Origin: an uncultured Candidatus Saccharibacteria bacterium
GTDB taxonomy: Bacteria > Patescibacteriota > Minisyncoccia > Phycocordibacterales > Phycocordibacteraceae
DNA length: 64,000 nucleotides
Assembly: GCA_964652615.1 (NCBI GenBank)
Contig: CAZZAT010000001.1
Location: forward strand, 284,337-348,336
Direction: 5' to 3'
Shown here: positions 19,885 to 59,464 of the stretch, piece by piece
Numbering within the stretch: the first letter of the stretch is position 1
Layout of the letters: every line of letters begins with the position of its first letter
The notes under the pieces: model-generated
What the model saw: only the letters and a program-made list of their open reading frames with translations
The model's database searches: none
What the model was told of the DNA's origin: nothing
Translations under genes and position numbers: made by a program

Positions 19885-21711
19885 ATGGCTCTTCTTGATT
19901 TTCTAAACAAAAAGCATAAGGATGCACAAGCTTCTACGGTCGTTGCGCCGGTGCTTCCGCAGGATATCTATGCGGAAGGAGCGCTCTCTCTTGCGGACAC
20001 CATCGCTCCCGCAGCTTTGAAGGTAAGCGCTAAAGAAATCACGCTTGGCGAGAAGATGTCGCGTACCTTCTATACCATCTCCTACCCGCGCTACCTTACT
20101 GACAGCTGGTTTACGCCGGTTGTAAATATGCCGCAGGTTTTTGATGCATCTATTTTCATTCATCCAGTAGATACAGCACAGGCGCTCCGAGGCTTCCAAC
20201 GAAAGGTAGCCGAGGTACAAAGCCAGATTTCGGAGCGTGCAGAGAAGGGGCTTGTGCGTGATCCGATGCTTGATACTGCCTACCAAGACCTTGAGGCGCT
20301 ACGCGATAACCTCCAACAGGCACAGGAGCGGCTCTTTGATGTAGGCCTCTACCTCACCATATACGGCGACTCGAAGGAGCATCTCGATAAGATTGAAGCG
20401 GAGGTGCGCGGCATACTCGACTCAAGGCTTATCTACACGAAACCTGCTCTCTTTCAGCAGGAACAGGGTTTTCGTTCAACGCTTCCGCTTGCAAACGATG
20501 AACTTGCCGTACATTCGAAGTTAAACTCTTCTCCTCTTTCATCAATCTTCCCATTCGTTTCCTTCGACCTTACAAGTGACAAGGGTATTCTCTTTGGTGT
20601 TAACCGCCACAACGCCTCTCTCATTCTCTTCGACAGGTTTTCACTTGAAAACTACAATTCAGTCGTGTTTGCAAAGTCTGGTTCCGGTAAGTCCTATGCG
20701 GTGAAGCTTGAGATTCTCCGCTCGCTTATGTTTGGAACGGACGTGATTGTTATCGACCCTGAACGCGAGTATGAGTACTTAGCAGAAGCTACCGGCGGAC
20801 GCCTCTTCAACATCTCGCTCTCTTCAGAACACCACATCAATCCGTTTGACCTTCCGCCGGTCAAAGAAGACGAGACGCCTTCTGACATTCTTCGCTCAAA
20901 CATCATTAATCTCGTAGGTCTCTTCCGCATCATGCTTGGCGGCCTTACTCCTGAAGAAGACGCCATTGTCGACAGGGCGATAACCGAGACCTATGCTTTG
21001 AAGGACATAACGGGGGATAGAGACTTTAGCGGTATCGAAGCGCCTCTCTTGTCTGACTTTGAGAACGTACTTTCGGGCATGGCAGGGTCCGAGTCTCTCG
21101 TCGCGCGGCTTTCAAAATACACCCGCGGTACGTGGGCAGGCTTTATGAACCAACCGACAAACGTCGACATCGGGAAGCAATTCATCGTCTTCTCGGTGCG
21201 CGATATGGAAGACGAGTTGAAACCGGTTGCTATGTACATCGTCACGCACTACATATGGAATGCGGTGCGGCGCGATTTGAAAAAGCGCATTCTTGTTATC
21301 GACGAGGCGTGGTGGATGATGAAGTCGGAAGATACTGCTTCCTTCCTCTACAGCCTCGCCAAGCGCGGCCGCAAATACTACCTTGGCGTCTCAACCATAA
21401 CGCAAGACGTTGAAGACTTCCTGAAGAGTCCGTACGGAAAACCTATTCTCACAAACTCCTCAATACAGCTTCTCTTGAAGCAATCGCCCACAACTATCGA
21501 CCTCTTGAAGGACATCTTCAATCTTACTGAAGAAGAGAAGTTCCTTCTTTTGGAGTCTGGGGTGGGAGAGGGCTTGTTCTTTGCGGGCTTGAAGCACGTT
21601 GCCATAAAGATAGTGGCTTCCTATACCGAAGACCAGATTATTACGTCAGATCCATCCCAGCTCCTTGCTATTAAGCGGGAAAAACAACGCCTTGAAATGG
21701 CGAAGGAATAG
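19885..21711 (+). CDS. VirB4/TrbE-family type IV secretion ATPase (C-terminal part)
   Basis: Walker A VVFAKSGSGKSY, Walker B ILVIDEAWWMM, VIDPEREY, TQDVEDF. Confidence 0.8.
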   Translation: MALLDFLNKKHKDAQASTVVAPVLPQDIYAEGALSLADTIAPAALKVSAKEITLGEKMSRTFYTISYPRYLTDSWFTPVVNMPQVFDASIFIHPVDTAQALRGFQRKVAEVQSQISERAEKGLVRDPMLDTAYQDLEALRDNLQQAQERLFDVGLYLTIYGDSKEHLDKIEAEVRGILDSRLIYTKPALFQQEQGFRSTLPLANDELAVHSKLNSSPLSSIFPFVSFDLTSDKGILFGVNRHNASLILFDRFSLENYNSVVFAKSGSGKSYAVKLEILRSLMFGTDVIVIDPEREYEYLAEATGGRLFNISLSSEHHINPFDLPPVKEDETPSDILRSNIINLVGLFRIMLGGLTPEEDAIVDRAITETYALKDITGDRDFSGIEAPLLSDFENVLSGMAGSESLVARLSKYTRGTWAGFMNQPTNVDIGKQFIVFSVRDMEDELKPVAMYIVTHYIWNAVRRDLKKRILVIDEAWWMMKSEDTASFLYSLAKRGRKYYLGVSTITQDVEDFLKSPYGKPILTNSSIQLLLKQSPTTIDLLKDIFNLTEEEKFLLLESGVGEGLFFAGLKHVAIKIVASYTEDQIITSDPSQLLAIKREKQRLEMAKE

Positions 21712-52943: not shown

Positions 52944-54257
52944 TTGAATTATCTAACTCTACCTAGTCCGAGACTGGGGTGGGCACTTGAAATCACGGGC
53001 GAGTGTTATAGTCAGGACATGCCTCTAGAACGGACTCCTAAGCAGCAAAAAAAGGAATTCCCCCCAAAGCTCTCAAAGAAAGATACACAAGAATTAGTTC
53101 TCGCGCTTATGCGTAGAGGAGAGGGTAAGAATAAGATGAACTTAATGCAGCGTGCAGAAGAAGCATATAAGGAAGCTCGCGCAGATGTTCGTGCCGCGTC
53201 AAAACTTTCAAGAGAGCAGAAGAAAATGCTTGTTGCTCGGGCTGAATATCTAAACAAAGTGCTTAAGACCCTTGAAGAGCTCGCAGAGGGGAAGGTGCCA
53301 AGAACAATGAAAGCTCTCGATTATCTGGGTGAGGGCATCTTTGGCAGTGCGCACCGGAGGTCAGAGCGCTTTTATGACGGACCGATTGTTACAAAAGAAG
53401 GAATCGAAAAAATGATGTCCGTTCTCGAACGGGCAATTTATGGCGCTACGTTTATTGATGCACGTAAAAATCAGCACGCTATTTTTCACGAAGAAGTTGG
53501 TGAGGACGTAGAAACAGAAGAAACAGAAGAAACAGGAGAAGCAGAGAAGGTGGAAGAGCATGCTCCTGAAGAGCCCATAATCGAACCAGCTGCACCTCTT
53601 GAAGGGGAAGAGGAGCCTATTGCAGACGAAGAGGTTGAAGAAGAGCAAATTTCTGAAGAAGACGAAGAATTAGACGAGGAAGCTCTTTTAGAGAGGAAGG
53701 CTCGTCTTATGGAAATAGGAGAAGAATCTGAGGAGATCGCTAATATTCTTAGTAATCCGGACACAACCCTTTCACCTGAACAGGCGAAAGAATTAGTTGA
53801 TGATGTATGTGAAAGATATCTTGCTGAATATGAAGATTATCCAGAACGTGCCGAGGCGGAACAAAAAATAAGAATGTACAAAGAAATTGTGTCTGCAAAA
53901 TATAGAGAAGCACTAGAGGCACGTGCAATACGGTACGGGGAAGCACTCGAAGCGCGTATGATGCGGTATGGCAATGCTACTGGATTTGATGAGATCCAAA
54001 AGGAAGATAAAAAGAGGGGCGCCAGGAAAATAAGCTTTTGGGGAGCGGCACTTGCAGCGCTTGCGGCAGCAGGAGCATACATGGGTATGAAGCAATCTGA
54101 AGGTACAGTTATAGAAGATGCGGTTAAGGGAGAGAAGTTCACAGTTAGCGCAACCCTTGATGAAGTCCTTCCTCCCGAGGGTGAGGCATATATTCCTGAT
54201 GAACTATCAAAACCAGATGAGGGCCGTCCTGGCTTTGAGCCGCCGAACGCCCCTTAG
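52944..54257 (+). CDS. Hypothetical protein with extended acidic (E-rich) region and C-terminal TM (low-GC islet)
   Basis: EEVGEDVETEETEETGEAEK...EEVEEEQISEEDEELDEE; one TM near the C-terminus (ISFWGAALAALAAAGAYMG). Confidence 0.45.
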   Translation: MNYLTLPSPRLGWALEITGECYSQDMPLERTPKQQKKEFPPKLSKKDTQELVLALMRRGEGKNKMNLMQRAEEAYKEARADVRAASKLSREQKKMLVARAEYLNKVLKTLEELAEGKVPRTMKALDYLGEGIFGSAHRRSERFYDGPIVTKEGIEKMMSVLERAIYGATFIDARKNQHAIFHEEVGEDVETEETEETGEAEKVEEHAPEEPIIEPAAPLEGEEEPIADEEVEEEQISEEDEELDEEALLERKARLMEIGEESEEIANILSNPDTTLSPEQAKELVDDVCERYLAEYEDYPERAEAEQKIRMYKEIVSAKYREALEARAIRYGEALEARMMRYGNATGFDEIQKEDKKRGARKISFWGAALAALAAAGAYMGMKQSEGTVIEDAVKGEKFTVSATLDEVLPPEGEAYIPDELSKPDEGRPGFEPPNAP

Positions 54258-54265
54258 AACTTTAG

Positions 54266-54338
54266 TGCGCGGTGAGGGACTTGAACCCCCGACCTTCTCG
54301 GTGTAAACGAGTTGCTCTACCAACTGAGCTAACCGCGC
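54266..54338 (-). tRNA. tRNA-Val (anticodon UAC)
   Basis: Acceptor GCGCGGT/ACCGCGC, D-arm GCTCAGTTGGTAGAGC, anticodon loop TTTACAC, T-arm GGGGGTTCAAGTCCCTC. Confidence 0.75.
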
Positions 54339-54378
54339 GTAGAGAAACCATACCCGAGAAGTCGTATAATGTGAAGGT

Positions 54379-54651
54379 ATGGAAAGACTCGAGGCAGTGG
54401 TCTCGGGAAGAGTGCAGCTCGTGCTGTACCGCGACTTTGCGTGCCGGAACGCACGGGCACTTTCACTTGTGGGGGAAGTTGAGAATATGCCTGACGGCAC
54501 CGTGCGTGTGGCAGCCGAGGGCGAACGCGCCGCACTTGAAGCCTATGTATTAAAACTATGGAAAGGGTCGCTACTTTCAAAGGTAGAGATGGTGAAGACA
54601 AACTACACGCCTGCAACTGGAGAGTTCAAGGCATTTCGCATCATCTACTAA
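54379..54651 (+). CDS. acyP: Acylphosphatase
   Basis: 90 aa; VSGRVQLVLYR...GEVENMPDGTVRVAAEG fits the acylphosphatase fold. Confidence 0.8.
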   Translation: MERLEAVVSGRVQLVLYRDFACRNARALSLVGEVENMPDGTVRVAAEGERAALEAYVLKLWKGSLLSKVEMVKTNYTPATGEFKAFRIIY

Positions 54652-54668
54652 TGCGCTAGGGTGTAGCT

Positions 54669-55394
54669 ATGGAGCTGTCTATCATCTACGAAGACGCGAA
54701 TATTGTTGCGGTCGACAAACCCGCAGGCGTCATGACGCATCCCGATGGAAGAAATACTGAAGAGACGGCAAGTGATTGGTTTGCAAGCAACTACCCAGAC
54801 GCAAGCGAGGTGGGGGAGACGCAGCGCTTGCAGGATGGAACAGAATTGAGACGCCCCGGAGTCGTGCATCGGCTTGATAGAGATACGTCGGGGGTTTTGG
54901 TTTTTGCAAAAACAGCCGAGGCGCATGCCTTTTTGAAAGACGCGTTTCAGAATCGTCTCGTGAAAAAGACATACACCGCATTTGTGTACGGCGTTCCGAA
55001 AGAAAAGAAAGGCACGATAGAGTTTTCAATAGGACGCTCTCGCAAAGACTTCAGACTCCGTTCCGCGCAGCCTAAAGCAAAGGGAACGCTACGAGAGGCG
55101 ATTACGCGCTATGAAGTGAAAGGAGAGGACGCGCTTGGTAAGCATGCACTCTTGCAGGTATATCCAGAAACAGGACGCACCCACCAGATACGCGTGCATC
55201 TAAAAGCACTCCATCACCCCATCGTAGGCGATTCGCTCTATGCACCTAACCGTTCCGTTGATCTCGGGTTTCAAAGACTGGGCCTTCACGCATCCTTGCT
55301 TGAGCTTCCGCTTCAAAATGGCGAGACCCTGAAGCTCGAATCACCCCTCCCCGAGGATTTAGCCAAGGCTGCAGCGCTGTTTGCCGCCTTCTAA
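54669..55394 (+). CDS. RluA-family pseudouridine synthase
   Basis: VHRLDRDTSGVLVFAKT catalytic Asp motif; THQIRVH. Confidence 0.85.
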   Translation: MELSIIYEDANIVAVDKPAGVMTHPDGRNTEETASDWFASNYPDASEVGETQRLQDGTELRRPGVVHRLDRDTSGVLVFAKTAEAHAFLKDAFQNRLVKKTYTAFVYGVPKEKKGTIEFSIGRSRKDFRLRSAQPKAKGTLREAITRYEVKGEDALGKHALLQVYPETGRTHQIRVHLKALHHPIVGDSLYAPNRSVDLGFQRLGLHASLLELPLQNGETLKLESPLPEDLAKAAALFAAF

Positions 55395-55418
55395 GAGGCG
55401 TGCTACAGTAGCGCAACT

Positions 55419-55973
55419 ATGGCAGGCATCATTACTCCGGTGAAGACGGACGAACGCACCAAGCTCGGGATACGCCCTGGCGACACGGTGCGTGTCCACC
55501 AGAAGATTACCGAGCAAAAGAAGGGTAGAGCAGCAAACAAGAAGGAAACCACTACCCAGAATATGCGTACCCAGGTTTTCGAAGGACTTGTTCTTGCGGT
55601 AAAGCACGGCAATGAGGCAGGCGCTTCCTTTACGGTCCGCGCCACCATGTCCGGCATTGGCGTTGAGCGTGTGTTTCCACTCTTTGCCCCTTTCATTGAG
55701 AAGATTGAAATCGTGAAGCGTTCTAAGGTTCGCCGCGCAAAGCTCTACTTCATTCGTGAGAAAGTAGCGCGCGAAGTGAAGCGCCAGCTCCGCAATATGC
55801 GCATGATGAACATTTCTACCGAAGACTTTGCACAGAAAGCTGATGAGGTTGTCCTTGATGAGAAGCCTGCAGAGGAAGTGGTTGCAGCAGCAGAAGCAGA
55901 GGCTGTTGTTGAGGAAGGAGCACCTGAAGAAGTAGCTTTGGAGGAGAAAGAGGAAGAGAAGGTAGCTGCGTAG
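55419..55973 (+). CDS. rplS: 50S ribosomal protein L19 with acidic C-terminal extension
   Basis: ...GDTVRVHQKI...RTQVFEGLVLAVK... core, then a ~70-aa E/A-rich tail. Confidence 0.9.
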   Translation: MAGIITPVKTDERTKLGIRPGDTVRVHQKITEQKKGRAANKKETTTQNMRTQVFEGLVLAVKHGNEAGASFTVRATMSGIGVERVFPLFAPFIEKIEIVKRSKVRRAKLYFIREKVAREVKRQLRNMRMMNISTEDFAQKADEVVLDEKPAEEVVAAAEAEAVVEEGAPEEVALEEKEEEKVAA

Positions 55974-56031
55974 CGTAGAGTAGTTTTCATAGAAGTTGTG
56001 TATCTCCCGTGGATAAATCGGGTTTTTCAGG

Positions 56032-56739
56032 ATGTGGCTTCCGTACCATTTGGGTATGGGAAAGATAGTGCAAAAGCCTAGTAGAGGGGACGTAGAGTGG
56101 TCACCTGATTTTTCCTATGCAATTGGTCTGTTAGCTAGTGATGGATGCGTTTCATCCGATGGACGCCATCTCACACTTGTTTCAAAGGATAGAGAACAGC
56201 TTGAAAATCTCGTCAGATGCTTGCGTTTACACGCGGCAATAAAATCAGACAGGATTCAATGGAGTGATGCGCGTCTGCATAAATTCCTCTGCTCCATCGG
56301 GATATCTCCTCGAAAATCATTAACACTCGGCGCGATAGACATACCTCCCAAATACTTCTTCAACTTTCTTCGCGGTTTATTTGATGGAGATGGAAGCTTT
56401 TACAGCTATTTCGATAAACGATGGCGCTCAAGCTTTATGTTCTATCTCAGTTTTACCTCCGCTAGTCCTGCACACATAGAATGGATACGGACTACGCTTG
56501 AATATAGATTGTGCGTTAAGGGTCATATCTCTAGAGTACCTCCCAGGCATGGAAAGAAAGGATGCGAAACTTTACGATATGCGAAAAGGGAAGCGGTGAA
56601 AATAATGCGTTGTATGTATGCTGGCCAAGGACCCTCATTGTCGCGGAAGCGCTTGAAAATAGAAGAAGCACTGCGTATAGTGGGCGAGTCCCTTAGAGAT
56701 AATGCCCAGGTGTTGAAATTGGTAGACATCATACCTTGA
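56032..56739 (+). CDS. LAGLIDADG-family homing endonuclease (two-motif, free-standing)
   Basis: Motif 1 AIGLLASDGCVS, motif 2 LRGLFDGDGSF; 3' end overlaps tRNA-Leu by 36 nt. Confidence 0.75.
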   Translation: MWLPYHLGMGKIVQKPSRGDVEWSPDFSYAIGLLASDGCVSSDGRHLTLVSKDREQLENLVRCLRLHAAIKSDRIQWSDARLHKFLCSIGISPRKSLTLGAIDIPPKYFFNFLRGLFDGDGSFYSYFDKRWRSSFMFYLSFTSASPAHIEWIRTTLEYRLCVKGHISRVPPRHGKKGCETLRYAKREAVKIMRCMYAGQGPSLSRKRLKIEEALRIVGESLRDNAQVLKLVDIIP

Positions 56740-56788
56740 GGTGGTATGGCCGAAAGGCGTGGAGGTTCGAGTCCTCTCCTGGGCACCA
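56704..56788 (+). tRNA. tRNA-Leu (anticodon GAG)
   Basis: Acceptor GCCCAGG/CCTGGGC, D-loop AAATTGGTAGA, anticodon stem-loop ATACC-TTGAGGT-GGTAT, long variable arm, T-arm GGAGGTTCGAGTCCTCT, CCA encoded. Confidence 0.8.
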
Positions 56789-56794
56789 GAAAAA

Positions 56795-56822
56795 GAAGCG
56801 GCGCATGCGCCGCTTCTTTCAT
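56795..56822 (+). terminator. Hairpin terminator after tRNA-Leu
   Basis: gaagcggcgc-at-gcgccgcttc TTTC. Confidence 0.5.
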
Positions 56823-56865
56823 CCCCACACTGTCCTATCGTTATACACAGGTTGTCCCCGAAGTT

Positions 56866-57078
56866 ATGCAGGCGTATATTTTTTACATGAAGCAGCGTCT
56901 CCTTAAATCAGTCATGGCGTCACTTGAGTGGCGCCTCATCGCTTTTGCGATAACCGAAGTATTTTTCATAGCAACAACAGGACATGTCTGGCAGGCGACT
57001 ATGCTCGCGCTCTCGCTCCAAGCAATTCTTTTTATAGGACATTTTGCATGGTTCTTTGCGCGCGAAACAAAGGCGTAG
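56866..57078 (+). CDS. Small two-TM membrane protein (start uncertain)
   Basis: Longer ORF from 56746 overlaps tRNA-Leu; the hydrophobic part starts near 56866. Confidence 0.3.
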   Translation: MQAYIFYMKQRLLKSVMASLEWRLIAFAITEVFFIATTGHVWQATMLALSLQAILFIGHFAWFFARETKA

Positions 57079-57138
57079 TTGCTAGGGTGCAACACAAATT
57101 CGTGTTATAAGAGCGACACGAAGCTTCTGCTTCAAAAT

Positions 57139-57212
57139 GGCGGCTTTAGCTCAGCTGGTAGAGCTCCTGGTTGTGGTCCAGGCGGTCATGGGTTCGAGTC
57201 CCATAAGTCGCC
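57139..57212 (+). tRNA. tRNA-His (anticodon GUG) with encoded G-1
   Basis: G-1 plus GCGGCTT acceptor pairing with AAGTCGC-C73; anticodon stem-loop CCTGG-TTGTGGT-CCAGG; T-arm ATGGGTTCGAGTCCCAT. Confidence 0.8.
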
Positions 57213-57287
57213 CATTCTTTGAATCTTTTAAAAATCCGCGTATCATGCCGCGGTGGGCGAGAGTGCCCAGCATAAGGAGTACTGCAC

Positions 57288-57845
57288 GTGAAGTATTTCA
57301 TCGGGTTTGAAGTACCTGTCGCAGAGCGAGAACAGCTCTGGGGGGTACAGACGAAAGCTGCGCAAAAGCTTTCGTTTGAAATCTCACAAGGTTCGGCGCC
57401 GCTGCATCTCACGCTCGTTCCGCCTTTCTTGGTGGCAAACCGGAAAGAGGATGAAGAGCTTCAACGAGGCCTAAGTGTTGCAATACACAGGCTGCGGGCG
57501 CAAACGATCACCCTTGTAGGGATTGGTTCCTTCGAAGAACATACGGTTTTTGCCGGTGTTAGCGAAGAACAGCGCAAGGCGATTGCTGCATTTCGTCGAG
57601 ACCTGCATTTCTATCTTGATAGAAAAGATTCATACGAGAAAAGCTTTGTGCCACATGTAAGTCTCGCTCGGCATTTCGAACCGCGTCATTTTGTTGCGGT
57701 CGAACGGGCGCTTCGTGCGGCAGCAGGCGAACTGCGAGTTCTGCCACTTTCTTTTGAAGCCGGTTCATTCACGTTGTTTCGGAACGAAGGGAAGGAGTGG
57801 GAGCGTACCACAACCTACGGGCTTCGCGAACAGCGGGCAGCGTAG
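57288..57845 (+). CDS. thpR: 2H phosphoesterase (RNA 2',3'-cyclic phosphodiesterase ThpR/LigT family)
   Basis: Two HxT/SxL motifs: PLHLTLVPPF and PHVSLARHF. Confidence 0.7.
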   Translation: MKYFIGFEVPVAEREQLWGVQTKAAQKLSFEISQGSAPLHLTLVPPFLVANRKEDEELQRGLSVAIHRLRAQTITLVGIGSFEEHTVFAGVSEEQRKAIAAFRRDLHFYLDRKDSYEKSFVPHVSLARHFEPRHFVAVERALRAAAGELRVLPLSFEAGSFTLFRNEGKEWERTTTYGLREQRAA

Positions 57846-57852
57846 CTATCAG

Positions 57853-57880
57853 CAGGAGGGTCCTCGACCCTCCTGTTTTT
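57853..57880 (+). terminator. Rho-independent terminator after thpR
   Basis: caggagggtc-ctc-gaccctcctg TTTTT. Confidence 0.7.
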
Positions 57881-57896
57881 GCTATACTGCCCGCAT

Positions 57897-58280
57897 ATGA
57901 CTACCTTCGTACAAGAATTCAAAACATTTGCACTTCGCGGCAACGCGCTCGACCTTGCGGTAGGTGTTGTTATTGGAGCGGCCTTTAATAGCATTGTTAA
58001 TTCGCTTGTCGCCGATATCCTCACGCCACCGCTTGGCATGCTCATGGGCGGCGTCGATTTCAGCTCGCTCTCCTTCGTGCTTTCAGGAGATGCGGCAATT
58101 AATTACGGCCTCTTTATCGAGGCAACCGTCAGTTTCATTATCACGGCATTCGCGCTCTTCCTTCTGATTAAATTCATCAATACGTTCCTTCGAAAAGCAG
58201 AGACTGAACCAAAGGCTCCTGCGCCAAAATCTGCAGAGCTTCAGGTACTCGAAGATATTCGCGATTCGCTTAAGAAATAA
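57897..58280 (+). CDS. mscL: Large-conductance mechanosensitive channel MscL
   Basis: FKTFALRGNALDLAVGVVIGAAFNSIVNSLVADILTPPLG, the hallmark MscL TM1. Confidence 0.9.
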   Translation: MTTFVQEFKTFALRGNALDLAVGVVIGAAFNSIVNSLVADILTPPLGMLMGGVDFSSLSFVLSGDAAINYGLFIEATVSFIITAFALFLLIKFINTFLRKAETEPKAPAPKSAELQVLEDIRDSLKK

Positions 58281-58282
58281 GC

Positions 58283-58942
58283 ATGAAGACGCTCGCATTC
58301 GGCATCATTCTTATCGTCTTGGTTGGATTTGCAGGCTTCTTCTATCGAAATATCGCAGAGCGTTCGGGAGCTCCCGACATGATTGCCTGTACTGCTGATG
58401 CGAAACTCTGCCCAGACGGTTCTGCGGTAGGGCGCACAGGTCCTGCCTGCGAGTTTGTTCCATGCGCATTTCCTAACGTTGAAATTGAGGCTAAAGGACT
58501 AGCGTTTGCTGTGCCTGCAGGATATGTAGTTGAACAAACCGCAGACGCATCACTTCTTAGTAGATTTACAAAACCATCCCTGTCCGAATCAGTGCGCCAT
58601 ACGATTACCGTTCAAAGCTATCCGCTCGGAGAAGGGGAGAGCGCAGATGATGTTATTCTTGCGCATACCCGCTACCAACCCGCAGACATGCAAGCGGAGG
58701 ACTTCTCTCGCTTTGAGACAACGCTCATAAACGGAAAGGAATTTCGTTCAACCGTTATTGAACGCTTCGAAGCACTCGTACAATCAAGCTACTATCTCGT
58801 TCGTACAGAAGACGTGCTTGTCTTCACTATTACCGAGCACGACGTTTCCGATTGGATGAATCCAGATCTTCAGGTTGAGACACTACCCGAGCACAAAGCG
58901 CTGCTTGAACTTCTTGGCACGCTTCAGGTAGCAGGCGAGTAG
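58283..58942 (+). CDS. Membrane-anchored hypothetical protein with Cys-rich stretch
   Basis: N-terminal TM; CTADAKLCPDGSAVGRTGPACEFVPC. Confidence 0.45.
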   Translation: MKTLAFGIILIVLVGFAGFFYRNIAERSGAPDMIACTADAKLCPDGSAVGRTGPACEFVPCAFPNVEIEAKGLAFAVPAGYVVEQTADASLLSRFTKPSLSESVRHTITVQSYPLGEGESADDVILAHTRYQPADMQAEDFSRFETTLINGKEFRSTVIERFEALVQSSYYLVRTEDVLVFTITEHDVSDWMNPDLQVETLPEHKALLELLGTLQVAGE

Positions 58943-58978
58943 AAGAAATGCTAGGCTCTCGCAAGAAGGAGAGACTTC

Positions 58979-59464
58979 ATGCAAATAGCAACACTAGGAA
59001 TTATCCTTGAGGGAAACACGACGTTTCTTGCTGAAAAGAAGAAGGGGGAGATAGGAACAGGTGTCCTGTCGAGTCCTGGCGGCAAGCTTGATCCGGGAGA
59101 AACTCTGGTTTCGTGCCTTATTCGGGAAACGAAAGAGGAATGGAACATAGAGCTTCACGAGAAAGGAATTGAGTTCGCAGCTGTTCTCGACTGTTTTGCG
59201 GGTGGCGTCCTCGATTTTCGAGTGTTCGTCTATCGTGTGCGTGGCTTTGACGGCATCCTTTCAGAAACAAAAGACGCAAAGATGCCTGAAGCGTTTCCGA
59301 TAGACGAACTACCATTCAACAGAATGTTTGAGGCAGACCGGCACTGGTTTACCAAAGCTCTTTCCGGACCAGCATTCTACGCAAGGCTCTATTACCGAGA
59401 ACGCGCGCAGCACTTCGAACGTATCGAATTTCCTTCGTTTGAAGAAGCGCTGCTTACGCTCTAG
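58979..59464 (+). CDS. NUDIX hydrolase (MutT-like)
   Basis: Nudix box GGKLDPGETLVSCLIRETKEEWNIEL. Confidence 0.7.
   Translation: MQIATLGIILEGNTTFLAEKKKGEIGTGVLSSPGGKLDPGETLVSCLIRETKEEWNIELHEKGIEFAAVLDCFAGGVLDFRVFVYRVRGFDGILSETKDAKMPEAFPIDELPFNRMFEADRHWFTKALSGPAFYARLYYRERAQHFERIEFPSFEEALLTL

Follow-up and report, generated by a model that had tools for sequence, protein, structure and literature searches.

Integrase-type islands and prophages use a recombinase to integrate in tRNA genes, which are kept whole by a copy of the displaced segment, usually the 3′ part. Homing endonucleases of bacterial tRNA genes have been described as intron-encoded enzymes: HNH in tRNA-Asn of Patescibacteria, PD-(D/E)XK in cyanobacterial tRNA-fMet and LAGLIDADG in cyanobacterial tRNA-Arg(CCU) (PMC13011429). 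In the rRNA genes of Patescibacteria (the Candidate Phyla Radiation, CPR), LAGLIDADG genes occur within insertion sequences and group I introns, and their patchy distribution has been read as target-specific homing (PMC11270868). Intron-less endonuclease genes are represented by the mobile open reading frames (mORFs) of fungal mitochondria, found in atp6 of Allomyces macrogynus and in atp6, atp9, cox2 and nad3 of Glomus (PMC3630166). Here we analyse a 64,000-nt stretch of contig CAZZAT010000001.1 from an uncultured Candidatus Saccharibacteria bacterium (the window), in which a predicted free-standing LAGLIDADG homing endonuclease gene lies between rplS, encoding ribosomal protein L19, and the gene for tRNA-Leu(GAG). 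We consider it likely that this gene is a member of a large Patescibacteria family of free-standing, intron-less homing endonuclease cassettes, known so far only from the position immediately 5′ of the tRNA-Leu(GAG) gene.

The family shares with the LAGLIDADG genes of CPR rRNA genes its phylum, its superfamily and a patchy presence at conserved sites of essential RNA genes. The latter, however, lie inside 16S and 23S genes and are removed from the RNA, whereas the window family is free-standing at a tRNA and has no intron; neither "tRNA" nor "free-standing" occurs in the text of PMC11270868. With the tRNA-intron endonucleases it has in common an insertion at the anticodon-loop region, but those enzymes need a self-splicing group I intron, and neither tRNA-Leu(GAG) nor the window family is among them (PMC13011429). 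The mORFs are similar in being intron-less endonuclease ORFs in an essential gene, which supply a replacement segment and leave the displaced segment behind as a duplicate (PMC3630166). In the mORFs, which occupy mitochondrial protein genes, it is the 3′ (C-terminal) end that is replaced and the unused duplicate lies downstream; in the bacterial family the 5′ part and the promoter of a tRNA gene would have been replaced, and the upstream duplicate would serve as the promoter of the endonuclease. As in integrase-type islands, the tRNA is kept intact by a carried copy and tRNA direct repeats flank the element, but here the LAGLIDADG endonuclease is the only gene in the element and it is the 5′ part that is duplicated. 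A full-text literature search found no description of a free-standing LAGLIDADG gene at tRNA-Leu(GAG), and PMC11270868 and PMC13011429 mention none. LAGLIDADG enzymes and free-standing homing genes as such are familiar; what appears to be undescribed is the fixed tRNA address, together with the relic tRNA half upstream of the gene and the tRNA promoter embedded in its coding sequence.

In the window the endonuclease ORF is intact on the plus strand between an rplS gene with its own stop codon and a complete tRNA-Leu(GAG) gene (Table 1), an arrangement that the first-pass annotation of this stretch had recognized correctly. The tRNA was found by ARAGORN and by Rfam (40.6 bits against a gathering score of 29 in a 6-kb scan), and its minimum-energy fold is a class II cloverleaf with a long variable arm, discriminator A and an encoded CCA. 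A whole-window Rfam scan at the gathering threshold returned seven tRNAs with tRNA-Leu(GAG) not among them, which is a speed-filter effect of the larger search. The last 36 nt of the ORF are, as had been noted, the 5′ part of the tRNA gene (56704-56739), and the ORF stop codon TGA (56737-56739, plus strand) forms U33-G34-A35 of the anticodon loop. The start previously given for the gene, 55974, needs correction: it is the base after the rplS stop codon and merely the start of the spacer, because three in-frame stops precede the first ATG at 56032. The alignment places the likely true start at ATG 56056, from where MGKIVQKP aligns with the family N-terminus consensus MGKRGPKP; the public gene call P0001 (227 residues) also begins there.

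The ORF matches Pfam LAGLIDADG_3 (E=4.9e-12), and NCBIfam has no family for the protein. Both LAGLIDADG motifs are present, and in an alignment of 33 family members D37 and G38 of the first motif and L113-G115 and D118-G121 of the second are invariant, which includes both catalytic Asp residues. In 83 family sequences, 57 columns are conserved at the level of at least 90%. The AlphaFold model (confidence scores pLDDT 89 and pTM 0.84) has two alpha-beta-beta-alpha-beta-beta-alpha domains packed via the motif helices, and the top Foldseek matches are I-Tsp061I, intein endonuclease domains, I-DmoI, I-AniI and I-OnuI. The best match is I-Tsp061I (PDB 2dch; phmmer E=8e-5; Foldseek E=3e-9, TM 0.60/0.67). 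I-Tsp061I and I-DmoI, the best sequence and fold matches, share with the window protein the form of two-domain monomers of ~190-220 residues, but they are archaeal, intron-encoded enzymes with rRNA targets and no promoter in their coding sequence, and identity is only 21%. The predicted structure supports the earlier assignment of the window ORF as a monomeric, two-domain LAGLIDADG homing endonuclease.

We detected 785 homologues of the window protein; the 120 among the matches listed have 49-67% identity and ~220-235 residues and come nearly all from Patescibacteria (CPR) assemblies. Representatives at 50% identity form 54 clusters at E<=1e-30 and 594 at E<=1e-10, and relatives are present in at least 511 species-representative genomes. 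The loci that we compared are labelled with L-numbers (L001, L024 and so on), and the 83 occupied ones were drawn from these genomes and from metagenome contigs. Hosts of the best 80 loci are Kaiser-, Nomura-, Jorgensen-, Ryan-, Moran-, Azam-, Portnoy- and Harrisonbacteria and other Paceibacteria. The tRNA-Leu(GAG) gene lies 3′ of the ORF on the same strand in 75 of the 80 genome loci; of the remaining five, which have no called tRNA-Leu, four run into a contig end no more than ~80 nt from the ORF, and L007 has an unassigned tRNA call by ARAGORN at the tRNA-Leu position. It adjoins the ORF in all 8 occupied metagenome loci too. Every one of the 83 members with readable downstream sequence abuts tRNA-Leu(GAG), many of them with a truncated tRNA-Leu 5′ half upstream of the ORF, so the link to the tRNA is much stronger than the first-pass annotation had claimed.

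That annotation had taken the overlap of ORF and tRNA as a signature of targeting, which the family does not bear out. Gaps between stop codon and tRNA span -147 to +32 nt in the 83 loci, the ORF overlaps the tRNA in only 34 (18 of these in the -36 register of the window) and ends 0-5 nt before tRNA position 1 in 27, and the tail beyond ...RIVGESL is not conserved in the family alignment. The 36-nt overlap is therefore an incidental by-product of tight packing, set by the position of the first stop codon. On the other side, rplS is upstream of the endonuclease gene in ~75 of the 80 genome loci, typically at 60-130 nt (71/81 loci); where it is 0.5-2 kb off (L032, L048, L061 and L075), the ORF still adjoins the tRNA.

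Several further observations concern this junction. TTGACA (often TTGACAAAGTAAT) stands 7-10 nt before the 5′ end of tRNA-Leu in ~30 of the 83 occupied loci, independent of the ORF frame; examples are L002, L004, L006, L008, L014, L019, L036, L041, L046, L048, L055, L062, L069, L085, L086, L099 and L120. It is absent from the window and from the empty sites described below except the remnant L120, and any -10 element to go with it would have to lie within the tRNA itself. Assembly contigs often terminate within tRNA-Leu(GAG) or shortly downstream of it (L003, L015, L020, L022, L023, L055, L073 and L081; also L001, L162 and L241). Of the 75 GTDB contigs with a called tRNA-Leu, 8 stop within 300 nt downstream of the tRNA, and no contig begins within the 300 nt upstream of the ORF; the contig of L007, which has no called tRNA-Leu, starts inside the ORF, and the Logan contigs with the window's own gene all stop at the tRNA. 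These ends suggest strain-level heterogeneity or a shared repeat at the tRNA. The same endonuclease/tRNA-Leu(GAG) cassette is carried by L029, labelled Omnitrophica WOR_2, and L073, labelled Gammaproteobacteria, and these labels most likely represent mis-binning, not transfer beyond the phylum. Exact-protein look-ups of the window endonuclease and rplS returned only contigs in the same state from two samples and no alternative context. Phage were considered as a vector and set aside, IMG/VR viral contigs holding only distant relatives of at most 39% identity.

In most occupied loci the sequence that immediately precedes the start codon reads like part of a tRNA-Leu(GAG), from the D-loop through the 5′ anticodon stem to the anticodon loop. 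In L150, for example, AATTGGTAGACGCTATTACCTTGAGGT is followed by TGATATAAT and then by ATG. A profile of the functional tRNA places these relics consistently at tRNA positions ~14 through 36-44, and a profile built from 22 relics matches 55 of the 83 occupied loci (E<=0.01). In L038 the native promoter (TTGAAA-17-TATAAT) is followed by a leader, tRNA positions 1-36 and then the ORF, and a repeat finder reports the corresponding direct repeat at 683-706 and 1413-1436. Well-preserved copies of the cassette are, on the evidence of these repeats, bracketed by a direct duplication of the tRNA 5′ part, as in the mORFs. The L150 relic reads as a promoter for the endonuclease, TAGACG-18-TATAAT with a TG extension, and because the start codon lies 0 or ~14-16 nt past the relic loop, the endonuclease mRNA may be leaderless or near-leaderless. 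The heptamer GACGCTA is nearly invariant across relics. We rejected the idea that relics are more conserved than the functional tRNA, since overall identity is 0.70 and 0.72, respectively, and only the GACGCTA segment is more conserved.

The rplS-ORF spacer of the window has no match to the relic profile and no tRNA direct repeat. Its trace TACCAT-6 nt-ATG matches in geometry the TATACT-TGAGGT-ATG of L008, and the window appears to have lost its relic except for this degenerate trace. No significant relic is present in its nearest endonuclease-bearing relatives L005, L009, L011, L012, L016, L017, L028, L053, L085, L086, L099 and L114, nor, by inspection, in another of these relatives, L162, which encodes P0003.

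The second distinctive feature is a predicted promoter of tRNA-Leu(GAG) inside the endonuclease coding sequence. In a scan of 55350-57300, the best promoter-like site, with 10 of 12 matches, is TTGAAA-17-TATAGT at 22 nt ahead of the tRNA (Table 1); the segment encoded there (SRKRLKIEEALRI) is a well-packed, high-confidence helix in the AlphaFold model, the last conserved one. In 60 of the 83 occupied loci a strong promoter lies among the 110 nt that precede the tRNA, compared with 4.5% of control windows inside the ORF, and 33 loci have exactly TTGAAA/TATAGT. Codon choice follows the promoter: Leu208 is TTG in 52/59 (background 24%) and Ile216 is ATA in 40/47 (background 39%), whereas the equally conserved Leu203 uses all Leu codons. 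This pattern indicates that synonymous codons at the promoter positions are constrained, and a promoter held in conserved codons would be a clear case of dual coding. The empty sites L083, L088 and L091 have the same CGTATAGTGGGCGAG before the tRNA. This promoter is lacking in the subfamily with a ...IEKKQQQK... C-terminus, and also in L038, even though the C-terminus of the latter reads ...IEKALKVTGLRLR; there the tRNA is probably co-transcribed.

The first-pass annotation had proposed a comparison of empty and occupied spacers, and its outcome is as predicted. Among 80 metagenome loci picked solely by similarity to the window rplS, rplS is followed directly by tRNA-Leu(GAG) in 59 and the ORF is present in 8. 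Restricted to rplS at least 60% identical to that of the window, there are 39 informative loci, 31 empty and 8 occupied, and the three closest relatives, L082-L084 (rplS 81-88% identical), are all empty. Empty spacers of close relatives are mostly 20-90 nt long and consist of the rplS terminator and a promoter with TATAGT as its -10 element, which is ahead of the tRNA in 29 of the 31 sites. They share TATAGT and then ACACCT just before the tRNA and are otherwise poorly conserved; ACACCT is never found before the tRNA in occupied sites. In L082, L084, L087, L090, L092 and L109, TATAGT lies in the loop of a hairpin, GGCCCGC-TATAGTA-GCGGGCC, mostly followed by a T-rich run, and at such empty sites the terminator of rplS seems to share sequence with the promoter of the tRNA.

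Three loci are deletion remnants: L120 retains only the last ~60 nt of the ORF, and L115 and L116 retain the codons for LRIVGKSL. Dual coding of the 3′ end of the ORF would explain why that part is kept. Because the empty state is common and remnants exist, the locus comparison indicates an ancestral order of rplS, terminator, promoter and tRNA-Leu(GAG) with a 20-90 nt spacer, in which the ORF is a sporadic, site-specific insert that also decays.

The history of the endonuclease is decoupled from that of its host genes. Mantel correlations of endonuclease identity are 0.26 with rplS and 0.31 with rluA, while rplS and rluA correlate at 0.79. Pairs of loci with 95-99% identical rplS have endonucleases only 52-75% identical: L024/L059 (rplS 99%, rluA 98%, endonuclease 75%) and L051/L079 (rplS 95%, endonuclease 52%). 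Conversely, L039/L046 combine 74% identical endonucleases with 48% identical host genes, and L069/L071 combine 81% with 56-58%. The DNA alignment of L024 and L059 is a mosaic, with flanks of 95-100% identity and an ORF of ~83% and then ~55%; identity is low across the whole tRNA and returns to 100% exactly from the tRNA 3′ end. The low-identity stretch, the 3′ half of the ORF plus the tRNA, over which identity falls from ~97% to ~55%, is a replaced tract. In L002/L006 the tRNA differs only in the anticodon stem and variable arm. Presence/absence polymorphism at a fixed site (8 occupied, 59 empty) is in this way joined to a host-incongruent endonuclease tree.

We propose the following scenario for the cassette. 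Upstream of the ORF there is a truncated 5′ tRNA copy that stops at the anticodon loop. The simplest reading of this is that the tRNA gene was ancestrally broken where the anticodon loop ends on its 3′ side, that the element inserted there, and that the gene was rebuilt farther downstream. The element would have restored the essential tRNA gene through a new 5′ part and a new promoter, so that no splicing would be needed, and the displaced 5′ half would have become the endonuclease's own promoter (TAGACG-17/18-TGnTATAAT). The cassette would spread between lineages by double-strand-break repair with rplS and the tRNA as homology arms, and would be lost by deletion, its promoter-bearing 3′ end staying behind. 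The relics, being uniform across hosts in GACGCTA, probably go back to a single founding event and move with the cassette rather than being native. In the window, enzyme gene, embedded promoter and tRNA have all stayed intact, and the relic has decayed. The earlier statement that both neighbours are uninterrupted is correct for the window, but elsewhere in the family the element would lie within a former tRNA-Leu gene rebuilt downstream.

A number of points weigh against this scenario. Cleavage, the recognition site and present-day mobility are inferred. The window copy deviates at 4 of the 57 highly conserved columns and has a ~12-residue deletion in a beta hairpin of the N-domain; it keeps all catalytic residues but, judged by these changes, may be inactive. 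The relics could derive from a single founding event or a tandem tRNA duplication and are no proof of repeated insertion. Insertion boundaries are not resolved at the base level because the rplS DNA of the closest occupied/empty pair is only ~87% identical, and an attempt to obtain them from such pairs was dropped, the indel-spanning alignments being too noisy. Sampling differed as well, the occupied loci coming from species-representative genomes and the empty ones from metagenome contigs. Similarity of tRNA-Leu correlates with that of rplS at r=0.83 in empty sites and r=0.27 in occupied sites of equal mean host divergence, but a smaller contrast is also seen for the control tRNA-His (0.35 in empty and 0.14 in occupied sites); the decoupling of tRNA-Leu is suggestive, not clean. 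In the mORF pattern the replacement is foreign and the displaced segment native; here the decoupling of tRNA-Leu from the host could fit a foreign replacement, but the relics, uniform across hosts, would travel with the element and not be native. Finally, occupied L016 has the very same tRNA body as empty L087/L090. Cleavable and immune alleles can therefore not be told apart by tRNA sequence alone; the recognition sequence may extend into the leader or promoter, or the variants may not all have one specificity.

A more far-reaching possibility, which we regard as unlikely, is a gene drive on an essential tRNA gene, in which every endonuclease variant cuts foreign alleles and is accompanied by a tRNA-Leu(GAG) allele, with promoter, that resists its cleavage. 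If this were true, replacement of the host's only CUC/CUU-decoding tRNA would be driven, with the anticodon stem and variable arm turning over quickly in compensation, and the tRNA promoter in the last helix would make the 3′ end of the cassette undeletable. The enzyme could also repress its own gene by way of the relic half-site in the promoter of that gene, a form of autorepression known from I-TevI. Local tRNA replacement is seen only in individual pairs, L024/L059 and L002/L006, and it counts against the cassette scenario, too, that tRNA similarity does not follow endonuclease similarity family-wide (Mantel r=-0.05). General co-travel or an arms race of endonuclease and tRNA was rejected on that correlation and because tRNA-Leu(GAG) is not unusually divergent (mean pairwise identity 0.73; His 0.66, Val 0.80, Arg 0.77). 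Sharp differences despite near-identical flanks were also observed in tRNA-Val(TAC) (L024 505-580, 0.79 versus L059) and in tRNA-His of L005 versus L011, and tRNA allele replacement may be common in these genomes beyond tRNA-Leu.

A variant of the preferred cassette scenario differs only in the target and in the origin of the relic: the free-standing endonuclease would cut the spacer, promoter or leader instead of the tRNA body, and the relic would be the by-product of an old tandem tRNA-Leu duplication of which one copy was destroyed. It would account for the identical tRNA bodies of L016 and L087/L090, for the confinement of ACACCT to empty sites and for the many ORFs that end just before tRNA position 1. 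Against it, the spacers of empty sites, outside TATAGT and ACACCT, are so poorly conserved that they would make a poor long-term target; in addition, the relic ends at a consistent tRNA position, ~36-44, and no 3′ half of a first tRNA copy is found between the ORF and the intact tRNA. We consider this variant improbable.

It is formally conceivable, at rather low probability, that the ORF is a domesticated, vertically inherited LAGLIDADG host gene that functions at this locus, for example as a DNA-binding regulator of the rplS/tRNA-Leu region or as a tRNA-related factor. Its fixed position across many Patescibacteria lineages would fit, as would the number of highly conserved columns, an identity that plateaus near 50% however distant the host, a coding sequence that overlaps the tRNA promoter, and the presence of WhiA, a domesticated LAGLIDADG protein, among the fold matches. 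A host gene would not be expected in only 8 of 39 informative loci with the nearest relatives lacking it, nor would it leave the remnants L120 and L115/L116 or a tree decoupled from host genes, and both catalytic Asp residues are invariant, unlike in WhiA. An endonuclease gene in a group I intron or a split tRNA-Leu, with the tRNA made by splicing, would agree with the upstream tRNA-Leu 5′ halves of many related loci and with the known group I introns in anticodon loops of Patescibacteria tRNAs (PMC13011429), but is contradicted, to the point of near-exclusion, by an Rfam search of 53000-59000 (E<=1) that found no group I intron or other ribozyme and no RNA family besides tRNA, by an ORF with its own start and stop between complete neighbours, by a downstream tRNA with its own 5′ half and promoter, and by relics that mostly lack the acceptor strand and are unable to form a tRNA, so that the placement of the gene outside an intron or intein in the first-pass annotation stands.

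If the cassette scenario is correct, the family would define a large natural set of compact (~220 residues) monomeric LAGLIDADG enzymes that share one highly conserved genomic address, raw material for specificity studies and meganuclease engineering. It would show how a homing endonuclease can settle in an essential bacterial tRNA gene with no intron to help it, the gene and its promoter being rebuilt in a mirror image of the mORF strategy. The locus would be a recombination hot spot at which assemblies break, and tRNA-Leu and neighbouring sequence could mislead strain-level phylogeny in Patescibacteria.

Table 1. Features of the rplS-tRNA-Leu(GAG) region of the window
Feature	Position	Strand	Remarks
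rplS (ribosomal protein L19)	55419..55973	+	Pfam Ribosomal_L19 E=8.9e-28; own stop; left flank of site
Spacer between rplS and endonuclease gene	55974..56055	+	Degenerate relic trace TACCAT 56044-56049, then TTGGGT, then ATG
LAGLIDADG homing endonuclease ORF (predicted)	56056..56739	+	227 residues from ATG 56056; 235 residues from first ATG 56032
First LAGLIDADG motif GLLASDGCV	56125..56151	+	D37 = catalytic Asp
Second LAGLIDADG motif LRGLFDGDGSF	56368..56400	+	D120 = catalytic Asp
Predicted tRNA-Leu(GAG) promoter, sigma-70-type TTGAAA-17 nt-TATAGT	56653..56681	+	Codons L208-V217
tRNA-Leu(GAG), complete, encoded CCA	56704..56788	+	ARAGORN, Rfam, cloverleaf fold
Hairpin then UUUC, likely terminator of tRNA-Leu transcription unit	56792..56819	+	-19.9 kcal/mol

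The hairpin downstream of the tRNA has z=-5.9, none of 200 shuffles folding equally well, and a hairpin at 56006-56027 in the rplS-ORF spacer is no better than shuffled sequence. Elsewhere in the window, a weak tblastn match to the endonuclease C-terminus at 21011-21160 was examined as a second LAGLIDADG copy and rejected as spurious; it lies inside a 608-residue ORF (19885-21711) that by eye resembles a VirB4/TrbE-type ATPase. A small hydrophobic ORF (MKQRLLKSVMASLEWRLIAFAITEVFF...) without a Pfam match occupies 56889-57078, with a promoter-like site ahead of it at 56852-56880; its longer, 110-residue reading from 56746, which overlaps the tRNA, is probably not real. Directly after tRNA-His(GTG) (57140-57213) there is a gene for a 2H phosphoesterase/2′-5′ RNA ligase (LigT-like; 57288-57845), a homologue of which lies downstream in just one related locus, L012.

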